A stretch of 64,000 nt of DNA from an uncultured virus (IMG/VR IMGVR_UViG_3300045210_000027). Its lineage: Duplodnaviria > Heunggongvirae > Uroviricota > Caudoviricetes. Below, in pieces: positions 14,893-57,823 of this stretch (position 1 is its first letter; each line of letters begins with the position of its first letter). The notes below the pieces were generated by a model. It worked only from the letters and a program-made list of their open reading frames with translations, was not told where the DNA came from and did no database searches. The stretch lies in the IMG/VR virus record IMGVR_UViG_3300045210_000027. One strand, given 5' to 3'. A program made the position numbers and the translations under genes.

Positions 14893-16215
14893 TCAGGCCG
14901 CGACGTCGGTGACGACGAACGCCTGCGGACGGGTGACACCGAAGGCGACGCGCTCCTCGGCGAGGACCGCGACCAGGTTGCGGATGAAGAAGTCCGCGTG
15001 GCTGTCGGAGATCGTCACCGTGGTCTGCTCCCGGTCCCACAGGACCGAGCGGGAGAAGTCCCCGACGAGACCCTGGCCGGCATCGATCGCCTCGGTCTCC
15101 ACGATCGGCAGACCCCACAGCGTGCGGGGGCCGAGCGCGAACGGGCCGGCGGAGAAGTACTTCCCCGTCGAACCGTTCTCCCGGGCGAGGTCGACCGTCT
15201 CGACGTCCTCCGGGTTCAGGAGCACCGCGTTCGGGACGACGCGGCCCACCGTGCGGGCCTTCGTCATCGCCTTGCGCACCGACCGGAAGATGTCCGTGTC
15301 GAAGGCCTGCGCCTGGATGCCCGAGGTGTTGAGGATGCCCGGCAGGTTCTCGCCCGTGCCGTCACCGTTGAGGATCTGGTCCTCCTCGGTCTCGGCGATG
15401 TCCGCGGCGAGCTCGTCACGGATCAGGCCCTCGAGCTGGGCCGCGTCGGCGAGCGCCCGCTTGGTGGCCGGCACCCACTCGGCGATCGTCTTCACGGTCG
15501 CGGTCTCGCGCTCGAAGGCCCACGAGCCCTCGGGCTTGACGCCGGCCTGGGCGATGGTGACCTCGCTGCCCTCTGCGCCGGACCCGACGGCGGCGGAGGT
15601 GGAGGCCTCCGGGACAGGTGCGGCGGCATTGGTGTGCGAGGTCTGGCGGACGTACTCCACCGTGTCGGAGCCGGTCTGGCGGACCGAGATGATGTCTCGG
15701 ACCGTCAGGGGCCGGCGGCCAAGCATCTCGATGATGCCGGTCTGCTCCGGGGTGACGAACGCACCGGCGGAGGTGCCGGAGCCGCCGGTGAACAGCGACT
15801 TCACCGCGATCGGGTCGGTGGAGAAGTGGGCGCGCTCGGGGACGTTGACCGACCCGTCAGCCTTCACGTAGGGCTTGATGGCGGCCTTGAAGGCGTCCGA
15901 CTGGACGACCTGCACGCCGAGGTTCTCCACGCGCTTGACGCGGTCCTCGTGGCTCTTCTGCGCCTCGACGTCGGCGACGGCGTTCTTCCCGATCTCCGCG
16001 GCGAGGGACTTCGCCTCGTCGAGGATCGCGGCGTCGGCCTTCGCGGTCTTGATCTGGTCGAGAAGGCCGCGGGCCTTCTCCATGACCTCGTCGTAGTCGT
16101 GCTTCTCGCCCTCGGTCATCATTCGCTCGGCGTCCGACGCCGGCTTCGCGATGTCCTCGGCCTGCTTGATGGCGGCGATCGCCGCCTCCTGCAGGGTCTT
16201 GAGCTTCGTGCTCAT
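14893..16215 (-). CDS. Major capsid protein (HK97 family, with delta domain)
   Basis: Coiled N-terminus; EEDQILNGDGTG, LWGLPIV, GDF and LAEERV motifs. Confidence 0.95.
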   Translation of the reverse strand: MSTKLKTLQEAAIAAIKQAEDIAKPASDAERMMTEGEKHDYDEVMEKARGLLDQIKTAKADAAILDEAKSLAAEIGKNAVADVEAQKSHEDRVKRVENLGVQVVQSDAFKAAIKPYVKADGSVNVPERAHFSTDPIAVKSLFTGGSGTSAGAFVTPEQTGIIEMLGRRPLTVRDIISVRQTGSDTVEYVRQTSHTNAAAPVPEASTSAAVGSGAEGSEVTIAQAGVKPEGSWAFERETATVKTIAEWVPATKRALADAAQLEGLIRDELAADIAETEEDQILNGDGTGENLPGILNTSGIQAQAFDTDIFRSVRKAMTKARTVGRVVPNAVLLNPEDVETVDLARENGSTGKYFSAGPFALGPRTLWGLPIVETEAIDAGQGLVGDFSRSVLWDREQTTVTISDSHADFFIRNLVAVLAEERVAFGVTRPQAFVVTDVAA

Positions 16216-32790: not shown

Positions 32791-33618
32791 ATGAGAGAGA
32801 AACCGATCACTCCGGAATGGTCCAAGGCCCTCAACGATTGGTCGGCAGAGATGCGCTCTGCCAGCCGCTCCCCCGGCACAATCACCACCCGCACAGACCA
32901 CCTCCGACGATGCTCCCGCGCCCTCGGCGTCGGACCGTGGGACGTCACCCCCGACGACCTCGTGGCCTGGACCGCGGCGCAAACGTGGTCGGCCGCCACC
33001 CGCCGAAGCGTCCGCGCGTCGCTCCGAGGCTTCTGGGAATGGGCCACCCGCACCGGACGCTGCACCACCTCGCCCGCCATCGTGCTGCCCAAAGTCCGCG
33101 AACCCGACCACCGGCCGCGACCCACCCCGGATGCCGCACTCCGCGAGGCGATCATGCGCGCCGACCACCGCGTCCGGCTCATGATCGAGCTCGGCGCCCA
33201 CCGCGGCCTCCGGCGCGCCGAAGTCGCCTGCGTCCACATCAGCGACCTCGTGCAAGACCTCGACGGCTGGACGCTCCTCGTCCACGGCAAGGGCGGCCGG
33301 CGCCGGTTCATCCCGCTCGACAACGGACTCGCCGACCGGATCCGCGCCGCCTGCCAGGACGGGGCCGGCTACGCCTTCCCCGGTAAGATCGACGGCCACC
33401 TCTCCCCCAGATGGGTGGGCGAGCTCGTCGCGGAGGCCCTCCCGGGCGAGTGGACCATGCACAGCCTGCGTCACCGATTCGCCACCAAGACCTGGCGCGC
33501 CACCAACGATCTCCTCGCCGTGCAACAACTGCTCGGGCACTCCACCCCCACCATCACGCAGCGCTACGTCGACGTCGACCGCGCACGCCTCCGCGTCGTC
33601 GCCCAGACGGCCGCCTAA
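32791..33618 (+). CDS. int: Tyrosine integrase (short, no arm-binding domain, C-terminal -AA)
   Basis: GLRRAE, GKG, HSLRH, LGH and Y catalytic set. Confidence 0.95.
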   Translation: MREKPITPEWSKALNDWSAEMRSASRSPGTITTRTDHLRRCSRALGVGPWDVTPDDLVAWTAAQTWSAATRRSVRASLRGFWEWATRTGRCTTSPAIVLPKVREPDHRPRPTPDAALREAIMRADHRVRLMIELGAHRGLRRAEVACVHISDLVQDLDGWTLLVHGKGGRRRFIPLDNGLADRIRAACQDGAGYAFPGKIDGHLSPRWVGELVAEALPGEWTMHSLRHRFATKTWRATNDLLAVQQLLGHSTPTITQRYVDVDRARLRVVAQTAA

Positions 33619-51593: not shown

Positions 51594-52841
51594 TCAGGCC
51601 TCCTTGATGGTTCGGCCCGTGAGGGCGGCGAGAGCGGCATCCAGGTCGGCCTCCGTGAGGTCCTCACCGCTGCCGTGGGGGTTGGTGTCGCCCAGGCCGC
51701 GGGGGGCGCCCGCGCCGCGGGCCTCCTGGGCCTCGGCCGCGGCCTCAGCCACAGCGGCGGCGAACGCCTCCTGGTCGAGGCGCCCGGACTCACCGGTGGG
51801 CGGGTCGACGAGCAGGCCGCGCCGCTCGAGGGCCGTGAACTGGTGGCCGGACTCGGCGATGATGCGGGCCGCGTGCGCCCGGTCCGCCTCCTGGTGGGCT
51901 TCGCTGACGGACTGGCGGGCGGTGTCCCGCTCGGTGATGAGGGTGTCGCGCTCGGTTTCGAGCACGGGCACCCGGCGGTCAGCCTCTTCGAGCTGAGCCA
52001 GTCGGCTCTCCTCGATCTGGGGCATGGTGTCCTCCTCGGACTCGGTGGTGTGGGGCTGCCCCGCCGGGGTGACGGGGACGAATGTGGTGACGCGGCGGAC
52101 CTGGGTGGGGGTGCCGGTCAGGCTGGTGGCGTTCTCACCGGTGGTGGCGTAGGCCTGCTGCCAGGTGCCCTGGTCGGGTCCGGTGTCGATCTCGAACCAG
52201 ACGGTGGTGTCGTCGTGATCGACGACGTACACGAACAGGTTGTTCCCAGCCCCGTACCTGGCCTTCAGCAGGTCGGCGAGCTCCTCGCGCCGCTGATCGG
52301 CGGTCGCCTCGGTGACGGGCTGGGTTTCGCGGACGATGAGGGGCGAGGTGCGGCGCGCGGACTCGTACACTTCGCGGACGCGGCCGCCCCTACCGGCCTG
52401 GGTCACGAAGTCGACGCTGATGCCCTGGTCGAGGGACTCCACGACGCGGCGCCCGGACTCGTCGGCCTCCCCGAGGGTGGCCTGGGCGCGGATGGAGACG
52501 CCGATGGCGTCGTGCATCTCGGTGAGGACCTGCGTCCAGGGGCTGTACGTCTTGGCTTCGGCGACCAGTGCGGTCCCGTCCCAGCGGGCGTCCTCGGTGA
52601 GCACGCCGGCGACGTCGCGGATGGATCGTTCGGGCCGGTCGTAGTTCTCGGTCTCCCCGGGGTGGTCGCTGAACATGAGCGTGCCCGCCGGGAAGACCTT
52701 GCTTTCGGCTGCGGCCTGCAGGACCTGGGGCGTGTACACGCCGGACGAGCCGACGCCGGGAGTGATGAGCTGGATGAGCATGTTGCCGCCGGCGGCGGGG
52801 CCCGCGAGGGTGGTGCTCTCGCGGATCAGTGTCCCGGTCAT
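51594..52841 (-). CDS. Capsid maturation protease / scaffold fusion
   Basis: G.GSSG.Y, DHP, GVSI, SVDFVT.AGRGG plus coiled C-terminus. Confidence 0.85.
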   Translation of the reverse strand: MTGTLIRESTTLAGPAAGGNMLIQLITPGVGSSGVYTPQVLQAAAESKVFPAGTLMFSDHPGETENYDRPERSIRDVAGVLTEDARWDGTALVAEAKTYSPWTQVLTEMHDAIGVSIRAQATLGEADESGRRVVESLDQGISVDFVTQAGRGGRVREVYESARRTSPLIVRETQPVTEATADQRREELADLLKARYGAGNNLFVYVVDHDDTTVWFEIDTGPDQGTWQQAYATTGENATSLTGTPTQVRRVTTFVPVTPAGQPHTTESEEDTMPQIEESRLAQLEEADRRVPVLETERDTLITERDTARQSVSEAHQEADRAHAARIIAESGHQFTALERRGLLVDPPTGESGRLDQEAFAAAVAEAAAEAQEARGAGAPRGLGDTNPHGSGEDLTEADLDAALAALTGRTIKEA

Positions 52842-52882
52842 GCGCGGCACCTCCTAGGGGTGGTTGGGTGGGGCCTGTGGGT

Positions 52883-53065
52883 ATGGATGACGCGAACGAC
52901 GAGGGCGGGCCGGGGGAGTGCCCGGGGCATGACTTCGTGCTGCGTCGCGTGGAGATCAAGCCGCACGGGGCGGGCATGGAGCATGAGTGCCGGTGGTGTG
53001 GCGCGGTCCTGTACCTGGCGCCGGGCTGGTCGACGCGCGGCGAGTGGGCCCCAGAGCAGACCTGA
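52883..53065 (+). CDS. 60-aa zinc-ribbon protein, antisense to the head operon
   Basis: C..H...C..C pattern. Confidence 0.55.
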   Translation: MDDANDEGGPGECPGHDFVLRRVEIKPHGAGMEHECRWCGAVLYLAPGWSTRGEWAPEQT

Positions 53066-53083
53066 CGCGCGGGGCATGGGTAA

Positions 53084-53165
53084 GGCCCCGGAGCGATGCT
53101 CAACGGGGCCAAGAGCGAAGGCGGCTCAGCTGTGCGAATGAGTGGTGCACTGCCTGCCGCCTTCT
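53084..53165 (-). ncRNA. Candidate ~80-nt two-hairpin small RNA
   Basis: Predicted +1 at ~53165; hairpins at 53117-53164 and 53084-53110. Confidence 0.45.
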
Positions 53166-53167
53166 CC

Positions 53168-54712
53168 TCACACTGTACCGCGGTGGGTCAGCCATGTCAC
53201 GGTCCCGTCTTTCGCGACGTGGATCGCCTCGAGGAACGAACGCTGTCCGATGAGTCGACGCCGAAGCTCGTCGAGAATGTCAGGATCGGCCAGTGGCGTG
53301 CGGGCGGTGTCGAGGATCAGCCGATCGGCCTGGTGTCGTCCTCGAGCGAGCTGCCGTGAGATCGTGTGCCGTCCCGCGCCCTGCGGGCTCTTGATCTCCC
53401 AGGCGAACCCGCCAATGGTGACGTCCGGGTTCCGGGCGCCGCGTGTGAAGTCGAGTGGATTGAACGTGATGTCCAGGCCGACCGCAGCCAGGCGGTTCGC
53501 CGTATCCAGCTCGTGCTGCGCAACGAGCAGCCCGTCTGGTCGGTACACGACGCCCGCCCGCTCGGCACCTGGCATGAGGATGCGCTCTCCGAGCGGTCCG
53601 TCGTCCCCGGCCGGTGCCCCGCGCAGCGGCCCAGTGGGTGGCCGCCCGCCCGAACCCCCACCGGAGCCCCTACCCGGTGCCCTCGCGGGCACGTGGCTGT
53701 CACGCCAACCGTCCGCGGTGCGCCGCTGGGACCACTGCTCGCGGGGCCAGTTCCCTGACCGCCACTGCTCGTAGCCGCGCCCGCCGAGGATCCGCCGCTG
53801 CTGCTCCTCCGACAGCCCCTCAAACCAGGCGTCCGCATCCGACTGCAGGTCCCGTGGCTCGTCGATGCCCTCGAACCCGAGCTCGGCCCACGTCTTCGTC
53901 TTCGGCACCCGCGCACACCGCCCGTTCGGGTGGTCATACGGGCCAGGCTCATCAACCGGGTGCAGGGTGCCGTGCATCGCAATGCAGGACCGGCAGGTGG
54001 AGGGGTCCAGGTGTGCTTCCCACACCCAGCCGGCGAGCGTCGACCTGTTGGCCTGGTCCACGACGTGGGAGGCCTCGCGGGCCGCGTCCAGCATCTCGGT
54101 TCGGGCGATCGTCATCGCCCTGGTCAGGCCACCGTTGAACTGGTCCTCGATGCCGCGGACCATCCTCCTGGCCGCGGTGCGCGGGTTGTCGCCCACCGCG
54201 ATACCGCGGGCCAATTCCCGGCGGATCGCGGCCGTCGCTGCCGGGCTGATCTCCCGGTGCCGGGACGTGATCTGCCCGCTGACGCGCTGCACCATGGCCG
54301 TGACCTGCACGCTGCTGGCAGCGTGCAGAGTCGTACTGAGTACGCCGCCGGCCGCCCGTGGGGGCAGCTGGGCCGTGATCATGGCCTGCTCGGCGGCGAT
54401 CGCCTCATCGACTGCCACCCGCAGGCGGCCCGTAGCGCCGTCCGCCGCCTCCAGGGCGAGCTGGTCGAGCGACCCGGACACGGCCTCGAGGGCGGCCTGC
54501 ATGCGTGCAGACCGGCCGATCATGGAGGGGCTGATCGTGTCCCCGTCCGCGGCCAGCGCGAGTGCGAGCGCGGCGGCGTCGACCTCGGCGGCGACCTGGT
54601 CCCAGGCCAGCACCCACGAGGCCACCAGTGCGCGAGTGTGCGCGTCCTCCACGCCACGCAGGAAGTCGTTCAGGTCCTGCTCGATGTCGAGGACGCCCCG
54701 GCCGATAGCCAC
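53168..54712 (-). CDS. MuF minor head protein with C-terminal CdiA-like PD-(D/E)xK nuclease toxin
   Basis: RA.TIARTE...W.A..D..TC.SC...HG...HPNGRC; Gly linker; HE...NPD....WEIKSP...QA...ILD. Confidence 0.88.
   Translation of the reverse strand: MAIGRGVLDIEQDLNDFLRGVEDAHTRALVASWVLAWDQVAAEVDAAALALALAADGDTISPSMIGRSARMQAALEAVSGSLDQLALEAADGATGRLRVAVDEAIAAEQAMITAQLPPRAAGGVLSTTLHAASSVQVTAMVQRVSGQITSRHREISPAATAAIRRELARGIAVGDNPRTAARRMVRGIEDQFNGGLTRAMTIARTEMLDAAREASHVVDQANRSTLAGWVWEAHLDPSTCRSCIAMHGTLHPVDEPGPYDHPNGRCARVPKTKTWAELGFEGIDEPRDLQSDADAWFEGLSEEQQRRILGGRGYEQWRSGNWPREQWSQRRTADGWRDSHVPARAPGRGSGGGSGGRPPTGPLRGAPAGDDGPLGERILMPGAERAGVVYRPDGLLVAQHELDTANRLAAVGLDITFNPLDFTRGARNPDVTIGGFAWEIKSPQGAGRHTISRQLARGRHQADRLILDTARTPLADPDILDELRRRLIGQRSFLEAIHVAKDGTVTWLTHRGTV
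53172..53200 (-). promoter_or_regulatory. Sigma-A-like promoter inside the 3' end of the MuF-toxin gene
   Basis: GTGACA(53195-53200)-17 nt-TACAGT(53172-53177). Confidence 0.65.
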
Positions 54713-54724
54713 CGTGGCCCCCGC

Positions 54725-56305
54725 CTACTGGTCGGTGTAGGGGGCGCCAGCGGCGCCGCGGCCCTCACGCCACGCCCGGACCGCCTCAGACCCCGCCGTC
54801 GCGGTGGGGTCGATCCAGTTGCCGTCCTCATCGGTCGCGGCCGCGACGATGTCGTCCGCGTCCCGCACGCCGAGCGCCGCGAGCAGCAGCTTCAGGGTCT
54901 GGACGGGCGGCATCTTGCCAGTGCTGTCGGCCTTCGAGATCGCTTCCACGATCGTCTCGGCCGGGGTCTCGTCCAGTCCCGGCCACACGACCTCGATCGT
55001 GTCGTCGTCCCCGTTCGTGTCCCCAGCGAGGGCGAGCGTCTCCGCCCCGGTGAGTGGGTCGCGGCGTACCGACCCCGCCAGGGGGCCCTGGGGTGCGCGG
55101 ACGGCCTGCGTAATCACGTAGCGGGCGATTGCCGTGTAGGCGGCCGTCCACACAGCCTGGCGGGCCTGCATGGCCAGCCGCATCGGAAGGTTCAGGGTCT
55201 CAGCGACCGCCCTGGCCCCTGTCTGGCCGGGGTCGGACATGAGGGTGGTGACCGGTATGTCGAGGGCGGCGGCCACCATGGTGGCCAGGGGCCGGCCGGA
55301 CTCGGAGTCGATGGTGGCGCCCGTCTTCGGGATCGCCTCCAGCGTGACCTCCGGGTCCATGACCGCGGTCGCGCCGGCGTTCGTGTCGTTCCCGGCCGGG
55401 GCCTGGCCGGCGGGCCGGCGGGACAGTGCCTGGCGCAGGCGCCGCGACTTGCTGCCCTTCGTGGTGGCCCGCCACGCGAACTGCGACAGGGACTTCACGA
55501 GGGTCGCCCAGTCGGCCAGGAAGTCCCGGTAGGCGCGCGCCCACGTGAGTGCCGAGTAGGCGTCACCGATGCCGAACTTCCAGCCCGCCAGGCCGCCGAC
55601 CCGCACGTGGTAGACGGGGCTGTCCCAGTTGACGGGGTGGCCGTCGAGGAACTTGATGCGGCGGGCGGGCCGGTACCTGAGCGCCGGGTAGTACTCGGTG
55701 CGGCGCGTGTCGACCAGGCGACCCTGCTCGTTCAGGCCGCGGCTGGACCACTCGCGCTTGTAGAACCAGGGCTCGGACGCGTCCTCGGGGTTCGTGACGA
55801 TGTCCGTGACCTCGTCGAACAGGATGGTGCGCATCTGCACGTACCCCGTGCGGGGGCTGGTGAAGCAGGCGATGAACACGTTGCCGTCCGTGCCGATGGC
55901 CCGCTCCAGGGTCTCCTGGGCCTGGCTGCCGGTCACGGCCGCCTGGTTCCCTTCGTCCTGCCACCAGGCGCGGATGACGGCGTTCACGTCCTGCTGGCCG
56001 TCCTCCTGCCCGTTCGCCCTGGCCGCGATCTCCACGCCCTGCCCGAACACGTAGGCCTGCCTGACGGCCAGGCCCCGCTTGATGAGGGGGTTGGCGATCG
56101 CGAACACGCGGGCGTTGCGGGCGATGGTGGTCAGGCCGGCGCGGGAGAACTCCTCGTCCATGCCGGCGGTGAGGGACCGCCACCCGGCGTCGTCCATCGC
56201 GAGCTCGAGGTCGGCGACGGACTCGCGGAGGATCTCGATCTCGTTGCGGTACTGGTCGGCTTCGGTGGTCGCCTTCCGGCCGGTGAGTGTGTCCCACAGG
56301 GGCAT
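54725..56305 (-). CDS. Portal protein
   Basis: 526 aa after terminase; NPL..R, DGN.F motifs. Confidence 0.85.
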   Translation of the reverse strand: MPLWDTLTGRKATTEADQYRNEIEILRESVADLELAMDDAGWRSLTAGMDEEFSRAGLTTIARNARVFAIANPLIKRGLAVRQAYVFGQGVEIAARANGQEDGQQDVNAVIRAWWQDEGNQAAVTGSQAQETLERAIGTDGNVFIACFTSPRTGYVQMRTILFDEVTDIVTNPEDASEPWFYKREWSSRGLNEQGRLVDTRRTEYYPALRYRPARRIKFLDGHPVNWDSPVYHVRVGGLAGWKFGIGDAYSALTWARAYRDFLADWATLVKSLSQFAWRATTKGSKSRRLRQALSRRPAGQAPAGNDTNAGATAVMDPEVTLEAIPKTGATIDSESGRPLATMVAAALDIPVTTLMSDPGQTGARAVAETLNLPMRLAMQARQAVWTAAYTAIARYVITQAVRAPQGPLAGSVRRDPLTGAETLALAGDTNGDDDTIEVVWPGLDETPAETIVEAISKADSTGKMPPVQTLKLLLAALGVRDADDIVAAATDEDGNWIDPTATAGSEAVRAWREGRGAAGAPYTDQ

Positions 56306-56332: not shown

Positions 56333-57823
56333 CTAGTAGGTGGCGAGGTAGCCGTGCGGGTCGTCCTCGAGGAGTTCGTCGCTGGTGACCTGGTCGTCCT
56401 CGTCGAGGATCGGCAGGAGGAGCAGCTGGTCGAGGGCCTGGGACAGGGCGTCGATGGTGTCGTCGTGGCTGGCGTTGGGGAAGCCGCGGGCTTCCTCCAG
56501 GAGCTCGGCCACGTTCGGCAGGATCTCGGGGGTGGGTAGGTGCACGTTGTGGGCGTGCACGAACGGGGACACGGCGGCGGCGCGGGAGTACTTCGAGCCG
56601 CGGGGCTCGACGGGGATGAGGCCGGGGACCTGGCCGGACAGGAGCGTGATCACTGCGGGGCCGTTGGCCTTGTCCTCGACGAACTTCGCGACGGCCTGCG
56701 GCCACTTCCGTGTCATGGCCCGGATCGCGGCGAGGGTCGCGTTGATGTTCATGCGGGCCCGCACCTGGTCCACGAGGTAGGCGTGGACGCCGATGCGGAG
56801 CCACACCTGGCCGACGACGTAGTCGCTGGACTTGGTGTCCTTGAACGTCAAGTCCCACGACTGGATGAGTTCGACGTCCTCGCCGGGCACCCACTTGGTG
56901 CCGTCCGCGCGTTCGACCCAGGGGGGTGTGTCGTAGGTGGCCCATTCGGCGGGGAACAGGTCACCGGCTTCGGGGCTGGGGCGGCCCTGGTAGAGGGCGG
57001 CCCAGTCTCGGGGGCCGGCCTGCACCTTGCGGGCGTCCCACTGGCTGGTGGTGCGGCCCCTCGCGGACAGCATGTATTCGCCGGGTGCGCGGCCGAGCGG
57101 GTCGGTCTGGCCCTTCTCGGGCCGGTGGTCGGCCTGGGCGGGGATGTTGATGACGTCCCACAGGTCGCCGTCTTCTTGTTCGAGGAGTCGGCCGGCGAGG
57201 TCGGCGTGATGCCAGCGGGTGAGGATGAGGATGACGGGGGCGCCGGGTGCGAGGCGGGAGGAGGCGGTGGAGGTCCACCAGTCCCAGACGCGGTCGCGGT
57301 AGGTCTCGGAGTCGGCCTGTTCGCGGTCCTTGAGGGGGTCGTCGATGATCATCGCGTCGGCGGGGCGGGAGGTGAGGGCGCCGCCGACTCCGACTGCGTA
57401 CACGCTGCCGGGTCGGCCTGCGAGCTCGAACTCGTTCTGTGCGGCGACGTCGTCGCGGAGCCGGATGTTGAGGGTGTCGGTGTGGGTGGTGATCTCGTCG
57501 CGGATGAGGCGGCCCATGCGGCGGGCGACGGCGGCCGCGTATGAGGCGATGACGATGCGCGTGTCGGGGGAGCGGTTGAGTAGCCAGGCGGGGGCCCACT
57601 TGGTGGCGAGCGTGGACTTGCCCTCCTGTGGGGGCATGCTGATGATCAGGCGGGCGTCGGGGGTGGTGAGTGCGCGTGTGAGGGCCTGGTCGATGAGGTC
57701 GATTGCGGGGGTGCGGCGGAACCTGGGGTCGAGTGCGGCGCCCATGGTTGCGGGGGTGTCCCACCGGGGGGCGGGGGTGGGTTCGAACTGTCGGGCGGCG
57801 TGCTCCCAGGCTGTCAGGAGCAC
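56333..57823 (-). CDS. Terminase large subunit
   Basis: MPPQEGKST, IIDDP, TRWH..DL, YQ..P, HDD..DA. Confidence 0.95.
   Translation of the reverse strand: MLLTAWEHAARQFEPTPAPRWDTPATMGAALDPRFRRTPAIDLIDQALTRALTTPDARLIISMPPQEGKSTLATKWAPAWLLNRSPDTRIVIASYAAAVARRMGRLIRDEITTHTDTLNIRLRDDVAAQNEFELAGRPGSVYAVGVGGALTSRPADAMIIDDPLKDREQADSETYRDRVWDWWTSTASSRLAPGAPVILILTRWHHADLAGRLLEQEDGDLWDVINIPAQADHRPEKGQTDPLGRAPGEYMLSARGRTTSQWDARKVQAGPRDWAALYQGRPSPEAGDLFPAEWATYDTPPWVERADGTKWVPGEDVELIQSWDLTFKDTKSSDYVVGQVWLRIGVHAYLVDQVRARMNINATLAAIRAMTRKWPQAVAKFVEDKANGPAVITLLSGQVPGLIPVEPRGSKYSRAAAVSPFVHAHNVHLPTPEILPNVAELLEEARGFPNASHDDTIDALSQALDQLLLLPILDEDDQVTSDELLEDDPHGYLATY

Follow-up and report, generated by a model that had tools for sequence, protein, structure and literature searches.

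A promoter-hairpin unit behind a phage MuF toxin gene: a candidate RNA in the place of an immunity protein

Polymorphic toxins, whether of the contact-dependent inhibition (CDI), Rhs, type VI secretion system (T6SS), type VII secretion system (T7SS) or MuF class, are understood as a toxin domain accompanied by an immunity protein, and searches for immunity have targeted small open reading frames (ORFs) only. For the MuF class, the available text of two reports (Jamet et al. 2017, PMC5576092; Zhang et al. 2012, PMC3482391) describes an N-terminal MuF domain encoded near the portal and terminase genes, a variable C-terminal toxin past a conserved junction and exchange of the toxin domain between near-identical phages, and discusses a CdiA-2-type nuclease (cd13442) among the polymorphic-toxin domains. 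In the same available text of Jamet et al. 2017 (PMC5576092), a small ORF (<150 amino acids, aa) is reported downstream of 89.4% of 191 MuF toxin genes, while the words 'antisense' and 'terminator' occur 0 times and no element of the kind described below is mentioned. Here we describe a locus in 64,000 nucleotides (nt) of DNA from an uncultured Caudoviricetes virus (IMG/VR record IMGVR_UViG_3300045210_000027; this whole stretch is called the window), where a MuF head protein gene with a toxin domain is followed by a non-coding unit consisting of a −10-like box and a bulged hairpin. Comparison of 17 distinct copies establishes that the element is real, that it has a defined structure and strand polarity, and that it is strictly linked to one toxin clade.

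The locus resembles the described MuF toxins in domain order, in its position in the packaging and head module (terminase and portal genes upstream, protease and capsid genes downstream), in the junction, which here reads ..(F/T)(A/S)DG.., and in the exchange of the toxin domain between near-identical phages. It differs from them in that the hairpin clade has the promoter-plus-hairpin unit in place of the small ORF. By sequence (36.5 bits to PF18451), predicted fold and a PD-(D/E)xK-type motif, the toxin domain belongs to the same family as the toxin of the CdiA-CT/CdiI pair (4g6v). However, CdiA-CT is delivered by a type V secretion protein and neutralised by the CdiI protein, whereas the window toxin has a putative phage-head delivery, no adjacent CdiI-like gene and a nuclease activity that is predicted only.

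Two classes of toxin-antitoxin system offer a further comparison. In type III systems (ToxIN type) an RNA neutralises an endonuclease by binding to it, and the known antitoxins are tandem repeats that lie ahead of the toxin gene and are excised by the toxin. An RNA that binds and neutralises an endonuclease is also what we tentatively propose here, but the window unit is a single hairpin with its own promoter-like box, it lies downstream of the toxin, the toxin fold is unrelated, and there is neither a tandem-repeat antitoxin upstream of the toxin gene nor any tandem repeat in 52700–53800. Type I systems include those with a 3′-overlapping antisense RNA, of the txpA/RatA type, as well as nuclease toxins such as that of RalR/RalA. 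The likeness here is a convergent promoter-like box just past the toxin stop codon, present in 14 of the 17 loci, together with the prophage setting. In those 14 loci an RNA would by position be complementary to the toxin mRNA; in the other three, the window among them, the unit persists in sense orientation, where no pairing is possible. Moreover, instead of a small peptide the toxin here forms one domain of a 500-aa structural protein. A survey of the literature on polymorphic toxins with an RNA antitoxin or antisense RNA, made by titles and abstracts, returned no such element.

The promoter-hairpin unit and its conservation

The features of the window on which the analysis rests are as follows.
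53168–54712, minus strand: MuF head-morphogenesis protein with C-terminal toxin, 514 aa (Pfam Phage_Mu_F and CdiA_C)
53171–53554, minus strand: PD-(D/E)xK nuclease domain of the CdiA_C type (Pfam, homolog alignments, AlphaFold/Foldseek)
53195–53200, minus strand: −35-like hexamer GTGACA, within Val-Thr codons of the toxin gene
53172–53177, minus strand: −10-like hexamer TACAGT, in the last toxin codons
53117–53164, minus strand: hairpin 1, bulged, 48 nt (folding; covariance model, 66.6 bits; covariation over 17 sequences)
53084–53110, minus strand: hairpin 2, a 7-bp GC stem followed by UUACCCAU (folding)

Sequence and structural model together indicate a PD-(D/E)xK nuclease domain of the CdiA_C type at the C-terminus of the MuF head protein, as had been proposed from the sequence alone. 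Phage_Mu_F (PF04233) covers aa 162–267 (E 7.8e-12), and CdiA_C (PF18451) is matched at aa 427–505 with 36.5 bits against a cutoff of 26.6 (E 5.5e-9). The AlphaFold model of the last 140 aa has a predicted local distance difference test score (pLDDT) of 93.8, and its sole strong match in the PDB is the CdiA-CT chain of 4g6v (4g6v_A; Foldseek E 3.5e-7, template modelling score 0.64–0.67), so that a domain common to other toxin families is found by sequence and by fold. The motifs HE (aa 400–401), NPD (428–430) and WEIKSP (438–443) are present, and HE, NPD and WE.K are kept across the aligned homologs, with E439 replaced by D in some of 12 clade members. Among the PD-(D/E)xK residues in an alignment of 26 homologs, three (E65, K67 and D94) never vary and two others (E27 and D56) are conserved to at least 90%; these acidic and lysine residues are the ones we take to be catalytic in 4g6v.

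The toxin gene ends with TGA at 53170–53168, and its last codons contain GTGACA, 17 nt and TACAGT, which a consensus scan returned as the single promoter-like site in 52500–53700 (mean of 0.1 in shuffles), in agreement with the sequence-only reading. Hairpin 1 begins 7–8 nt past the −10 box and consists of 9 bp, an A bulge, 3 bp, an A/A mismatch, 4 bp and an 11-nt loop. It folds exactly as had been noted, while its first base lies at 53164, one base from the position 53165 given earlier; the predicted transcript start is 53165 or 53164. The 92 nt that span both hairpins fold with −47.8 kcal/mol (z −5.0), a stability that 0 of 200 shuffles reach. Hairpin 2 is present where it had been placed. 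No T-run follows either window hairpin and a terminator scan calls no site there; the same scan calls none at hairpin 1 or its homologs (five of five loci). Hairpin 2 is not conserved at the other loci with the unit, and it may form the 3′ end of the predicted small RNA, of the convergent gene transcript, or of both. Searches of Rfam gave no match at the hairpin in the window (E up to 10) or in five homologous loci (E up to 1), and ARAGORN found 0 genes. The unit is a new, precisely delimited non-coding family absent from Rfam.

The conserved unit comprises a −10 box (TAnnnT) and, 6–8 nt on, the bulged stem-loop. All results on covariation below refer to a set of 17 distinct sequences, the window included, and each of these 17 units adjoins the stop codon of a member of one toxin clade. 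Informative relatives were first obtained by scanning genomes, which gave a free-standing toxin-domain ORF of 154 aa in Promicromonospora umidemergens (locus L019, 53% identity) and a MuF toxin of Microbacterium resistens (L020, 47% identity). The same hairpin lies directly 3′ of both stop codons. Its 5′ arm in L019 is identical to that of the window (18 of 18 bases), and in the Microbacterium hairpin the fourth pair is swapped from G-C to C-G. The Microbacterium resistens genome has the hairpin twice, once in each of two prophages.

The linkage to the toxin is found from either direction. A strict DNA pattern of the hairpin returned 16 viral loci, six from the window phage and ten others, and in all 16 the hairpin lies 2–30 nt past the stop codon of an ORF that ends in the toxin domain. 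Conversely, a scan for the toxin protein that was blind to the hairpin returned 32 loci, of which seven were copies of the window phage; all 15 other loci of 44–53% identity carry the hairpin (34–76 bits), five of them newly found and with diverged stems, and the ten weaker or partial matches have none. Six IMG/VR copies and the window (seven aligned) are 100% identical and hence uninformative. A looser hairpin pattern gave 47 more viral matches and at least 117 metagenome matches, none with the full stem or a toxin domain; the metagenome matches, which lack the outer stem as well, were regarded as chance and kept as a negative control only. Similarly, a covariance model (R1) searched over 151 Actinomycetes genomes gave, besides the copy in genome G002, matches at 26–31 bits in nine genomes, none of them beside a toxin domain, which were set aside as chance GC hairpins. 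A toxin profile searched over 401 genomes matched in only five, and the four besides G002 have no hairpin.

Base pairing is maintained throughout the set, with 99.3% of 272 cells forming standard pairs and changes on both sides in eight of the 16 pairs. In L300 the outer stem is almost entirely rewritten, with compensation. The observed covariation score is attained in 0 of 500 column shuffles, and slid partners pair at 30–57%. The loop measures 4, 7, 11 or about 35 nt and its sequence is unrelated among units, which points to a folded single strand rather than a double-stranded binding site; a double-stranded operator was accordingly disfavoured, the spacing of its half-sites being variable. 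Because the loops have no common sequence, the earlier argument for a tRNA decoy, drawn from ACCA and CUCAU in the window loop, falls: both motifs are private to the window, and neither ARAGORN nor Rfam finds anything tRNA-like.

Two independent features give the unit a direction. On the canonical strand all 17 units have TAnnnT 6–8 nt ahead of the first base of the stem (TAGAAT in nine, TATGAT in two, TACACT in two, and TAGAGT, TATCAT, TATCCT and the TACAGT of the window in one each). All 12 wobble cells (G-U or U-G) are on that same strand, with 0 A-C cells, which would be wobble pairs on the other strand; the sole two unpaired cells are T/T. The canonical strand also folds better in ten of 12 units. 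Wobble polarity and the TAnnnT box together suggest that an RNA is made in that direction, starting at the foot of the stem. Of the conserved promoter and covarying stem for which a test in homologs had been suggested, the −10 box and the stem are found, while the −35 region is weakly conserved. A leaderless antisense ORF at the predicted start was considered and rejected, since its frame and length vary (it has 24 aa in L057 and 93 aa in L058, and the frame in L050 is a different one) and the window has no start codon there.

The orientation of the unit relative to the toxin gene is variable. It is sense in three loci (window, L019 and L309) and antisense in 14. In the sense loci the hexamers lie within the last toxin codons, with GTGACA (window), GCGACA (L019) or GTGACT (L309) as the −35-like sequence at 17-nt spacing; in the antisense loci the −10 box lies beyond the hairpin and points back into the toxin gene. 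The toxin tree pairs the window with L019 (93/91) and places L309 on a deep branch of its own; the orientation has therefore changed at least once, and probably twice, with the internal arrangement of the unit kept. L309 has a stem-loop with a U-tract at 1689–1722, 31 nt past the hairpin, where the window has hairpin 2. It lies in mid-operon among the head genes, separating the MuF-toxin unit from the structural gene that follows. A terminator past a sense-type unit counts in favour of the small-RNA reading given below, and its place implies read-through control of late transcription in that phage.

Convergent antisense RNAs that overlap the 3′ end of a toxin mRNA are known in prophage type I systems of Gram-positive bacteria, and the 14 units that point into the toxin gene, with the hairpin 2–21 nt from the stop codon, match that arrangement. 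The promoter might therefore transcribe back across the toxin 3′ end and silence the gene in cis, in a type I-like manner or by transcriptional interference, with the hairpin as a stabilising 5′ stem; the sense copy of the window would then be an inverted derivative, inactive or re-purposed. We consider this unlikely. At the three sense-type loci (window, L019 and L309), which fall on at least two branches of the tree, the RNA would be unable to pair with the toxin mRNA, and yet −10 box, spacing and hairpin are all retained. The antisense of the toxin codons is conserved no more than coding demands, the hairpin being the conserved part.

The toxin cassette and its borders

The unit forms the tail of a segment inserted into the MuF gene.
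53066–53671, minus strand: inserted toxin cassette (toxin-less relatives end MuF near the junction; drop in G+C at third codon positions, GC3)

The cassette is composed of a Gly/Ser/Pro linker and the nuclease domain (aa 348–514, nt 53671–53171) and a 102-nt non-coding tail (53167–53066). GC3 is 0.77 in its coding part as against 0.90 in the N-terminal part of MuF, the window as a whole having a G+C content of 70%. In toxin-less relatives such as L200, MuF ends just past ..DGWRDS..VP.RAP.. and stands tail-to-tail with a zinc-ribbon gene, and in the 12 loci of window-phage relatives that were read MuF measures 343–361 aa. Of 26 such relatives, none has the toxin domain and none has the hairpin at the MuF end (one 18.9-bit match lies 2.5 kb off). 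The unit is also absent from the toxin-less loci L185 and L187, where MuF likewise ends just past the junction motif (..FSDG..); in L187 the MuF stop codon runs straight into the leader of the scaffold gene, whereas in its toxin-bearing sister L059 this leader starts after the −10/−35 region of the unit. A motif (F/T/W)(A/S)DG is seen where cassettes join the MuF body (window 53705–53719, L020, L032, L185 and L187); toxin-less MuF proteins end a few residues past it, and it resembles the junctions of other polymorphic toxins. In the window, a frame that starts at 53060–53080 on the minus strand (MPRASG..) resembles the tail of toxin-less MuF proteins (..MVPSRAPAAA in L200), so that the original MuF end, displaced when the cassette came in, may survive there as a remnant.

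The two Microbacterium prophages illustrate the exchange of the cassette. They are about 99% identical before the junction and again from the 3′ half of the hairpin on, and about 60% identical between, and the exchanged segment includes a compensatory change in the inner hairpin stem. The smallest form of the module is L019, where the toxin-domain ORF and the unit stand alone between the genes for a prephenate dehydrogenase and a FAD oxidoreductase. This island (2344–2966, about 620 bp) has a seemingly lower G+C content by eye and no phage genes nearby.

Several other arrangements were noted among the relatives. In L052 (2186–2725), L058 (2188–2604) and L061 (about 2185–2600), coordinates being given with the toxin on the plus strand, differing reverse-oriented membrane-protein morons are located between the cassette and the scaffold gene, with the promoter-hairpin unit downstream of them and in the same direction. 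The 303-aa protein P0008 has two tandem copies of the toxin domain, 17 stretches of the 5032-aa protein P0040 match part of it, and P0010 seemingly has no stop codon before the hairpin and reads through it.

The place occupied by the unit differs between branches of the toxin family. Members of the hairpin clade have no coding sequence between stop codon and unit, and what comes next is the scaffold gene or a lineage-specific reverse-oriented moron, namely membrane-protein genes in L052, L058 and L061 and the zinc-ribbon gene in the window. The hairpin is absent from toxins of 28–42% identity (L311–L315, TPA4 and MalagasyRose). These distant toxins are of an ORF type, with a co-oriented ORF that starts −14 to +8 nt from the stop codon: 102–115 aa with starts at −14 to +7 nt in L311, L313, L314 and L315, a start placed by eye in L312, and ORFs overlapping the toxin stop codon in TPA4 (Orf5, 107 aa) and MalagasyRose (gp10, 103 aa), the latter two with no Pfam family and no mutual similarity. 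The tree separates 17 hairpin-type from seven ORF-type toxins with 100/98 support. Among these sequences the unit is confined to one toxin clade and mutually exclusive with an immunity-like ORF.

It is also conceivable that the hairpin is a structural boundary element with no antidote role, such as a 3′ stem, a weak two-way terminator, or a homology patch or cruciform for cassette swaps, in which case the TAnnnT box would be incidental or a separate promoter. Its position directly after the stop codon, its stability on both strands (−19 to −29 kcal/mol) and, in the window and L019, its location between convergent genes are in keeping with such an element. So are the fact that the divergence border of the two near-identical prophages falls inside it, the pairing of toxin types with downstream contexts in each of the four possible ways (L050, L051, L052 and L058/L061), and the high sequence conservation, which would suit a recombination anchor. 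However, no U-tract is present on either strand and no terminator is called in the five loci scanned, and in toxin-less relatives MuF and the gene after it do without such an element. The 12:0 asymmetry of the wobble pairs and a TAnnnT box fixed at 6–8 nt through inversions would also not be expected of a symmetric DNA element or a 3′ stem. A boundary element without antidote role therefore seems to us improbable.

Neighbouring genes and genome setting

The MuF-toxin gene is located in the right-half, siphovirus-like genome of the window among the following genes.
56336–57823, minus strand: large terminase
54728–56305, minus strand: portal gene, upstream of the MuF gene
51594–52850, minus strand: head maturation protease/scaffold gene (PHROG 15531, E 1.7e-24)
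52883–53065, plus strand: convergent 60-aa zinc-ribbon-like gene (CxxH...CxxC; GC3 0.89; conserved homologs)

The protease/scaffold gene probably starts with the ATG at 52841, which has AGGAGG ahead of it, and is followed on the minus strand by genes for a cement protein, the capsid, the tail and a lysin. The window contains two phage-like genomes in tandem (1–33700 and 34000–64000), and terminase, portal, capsid and tape-measure genes are present in both. The left genome encodes an HK97-type capsid protein (14896–16215), an S78 protease and a tyrosine integrase (32791–33615, plus strand); the right genome is that of the MuF-toxin phage.

Between the toxin and protease genes (52851–53167) no co-oriented frame looks coding, as the sequence-only reading had held; the minus-strand frame 52838–53077 has a non-coding composition by codon position (GC 0.80/0.61/0.74). 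The small downstream ORF typical of MuF toxins is thus lacking in the window. The only real gene in this interval is the zinc-ribbon gene, whose coding-like composition and conserved homologs could suggest that its 60-aa product is the immunity protein and that the hairpins are merely terminators between two genes; the earlier reading had named this protein as the alternative rescuer. Its homologs share MDDAN..PGECPGH..CRWCG, and the gene recurs, identically placed and oriented (tail-to-tail with MuF), in 26 toxin-less viral loci (L200–L225), which are all of the toxin-less relatives found. Since these 26 loci have neither the toxin domain (hmmsearch) nor the hairpin near the MuF end, and the 16 other hairpin-type toxin loci have no zinc-ribbon gene, an immunity function of this protein is scarcely credible. 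By its distribution the gene appears to be a lineage gene, which is neither part of the cassette nor the cognate immunity gene. The CxxH...CxxC proteins form a family of 50–66 aa with an N-terminus MDDAN or LDDRN, for which no Pfam or PHROG family was matched.

A possible RNA in the immunity slot

The unit occupies the slot that holds a small protein gene in other branches of the toxin family, and it is from this position that we infer a role as antitoxin. The hairpin might thus be a small non-coding gene forming the tail of a mobile toxin cassette (linker, nuclease domain, −10 box and stem-loop), with a promoter of its own from which a short RNA is most likely made. Such an RNA would start at the foot of the hairpin and so have a 5′-terminal stem, which would probably make it very stable; an RNA starting at the base of a long GC stem should resist 5′-end-dependent decay. 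For the window this would give an RNA of about 80 nt whose 3′ end lies past hairpin 2. Acting as an immunity factor or antitoxin, it would keep the nuclease domain harmless in the cell that carries the phage or prophage. That a cassette-borne small RNA fills the immunity slot and protects its carriers from the nuclease domain in this way is the best of the readings considered, though in our estimate still somewhat short of probable; both the transcription of the unit and its protective function are deduced from comparative evidence.

As to how the RNA would act, the promoter and hairpin are kept in both orientations, and what is conserved is the stem and not the sequence complementary to the toxin mRNA. 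Both points favour action in trans by the hairpin itself over pairing with the toxin mRNA; the hairpin might, for example, bind the nuclease as a mimic of a structured RNA substrate, or serve as a decoy. It is possible, though on balance doubtful, that a trans-acting, self-promoted RNA of about 50–140 nt, led by a 5′ stem, binds and blocks the PD-(D/E)xK domain as an RNA-substrate mimic, which would make it the first RNA immunity known for a polymorphic toxin. Toxin domain and RNA would then make up a minimal mobile two-part module, free-standing in Promicromonospora and plugging onto phage head proteins elsewhere.

Several observations weigh against an RNA with a protective role. The −35 region is poorly conserved, and a full promoter is called in two of five loci (window and L296, not L301, L309 or L019). 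Five of the 16 pairs never vary, and the 5′ arm is near-identical between toxins that are only about 50% identical, which could reflect recognition at the DNA level or gene conversion. There is no conserved single-stranded loop motif, and the exchanged segment has its border within the hairpin, as would be expected of a recombination anchor. All hairpin toxins belong to one clade, and the link between hairpin and missing ORF thus represents a single evolutionary event, long maintained. No transcript has been seen, although in the four runs inspected of six RNA-labelled 'ant metagenome' runs that contain the region, all four available as contigs, transcript ends cannot be read and depth is flat at about 2–13 over 52000–54300, which counts neither for nor against an RNA.

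Late phage genes are silent in lysogens, and the toxin might be made in the dying lytic cell and act only after injection, so that immunity would be unnecessary; alternatively, immunity might be encoded elsewhere. In either case the unit would be a selfish or neutral passenger. About a tenth of the MuF toxin genes covered by the available text of Jamet et al. 2017 (PMC5576092) have no small downstream ORF, which suggests that an adjacent immunity gene may not always be needed and adds to the points against a protective RNA. Yet the structure, polarity and −10 box of the unit are kept down to 44% toxin identity, and the solitary chromosomal module of L019 has no phage context to excuse missing protection. 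The exchange of the toxin domain alone between near-identical prophages further argues against a specific immunity protein encoded elsewhere, and we consider a mere passenger distinctly improbable.

If the proposed RNA does protect its carriers, immunity to polymorphic toxins can be RNA-based, 'orphan' toxins without an adjacent ORF would need re-examination, and polymorphic toxins and toxin-antitoxin systems with RNA antitoxins would grade into each other. The cultured strains of Microbacterium resistens and Promicromonospora umidemergens that carry the unit make it directly testable. Even as a regulatory or recombination element, the unit defines the 3′ end of an exchangeable actinophage toxin cassette.

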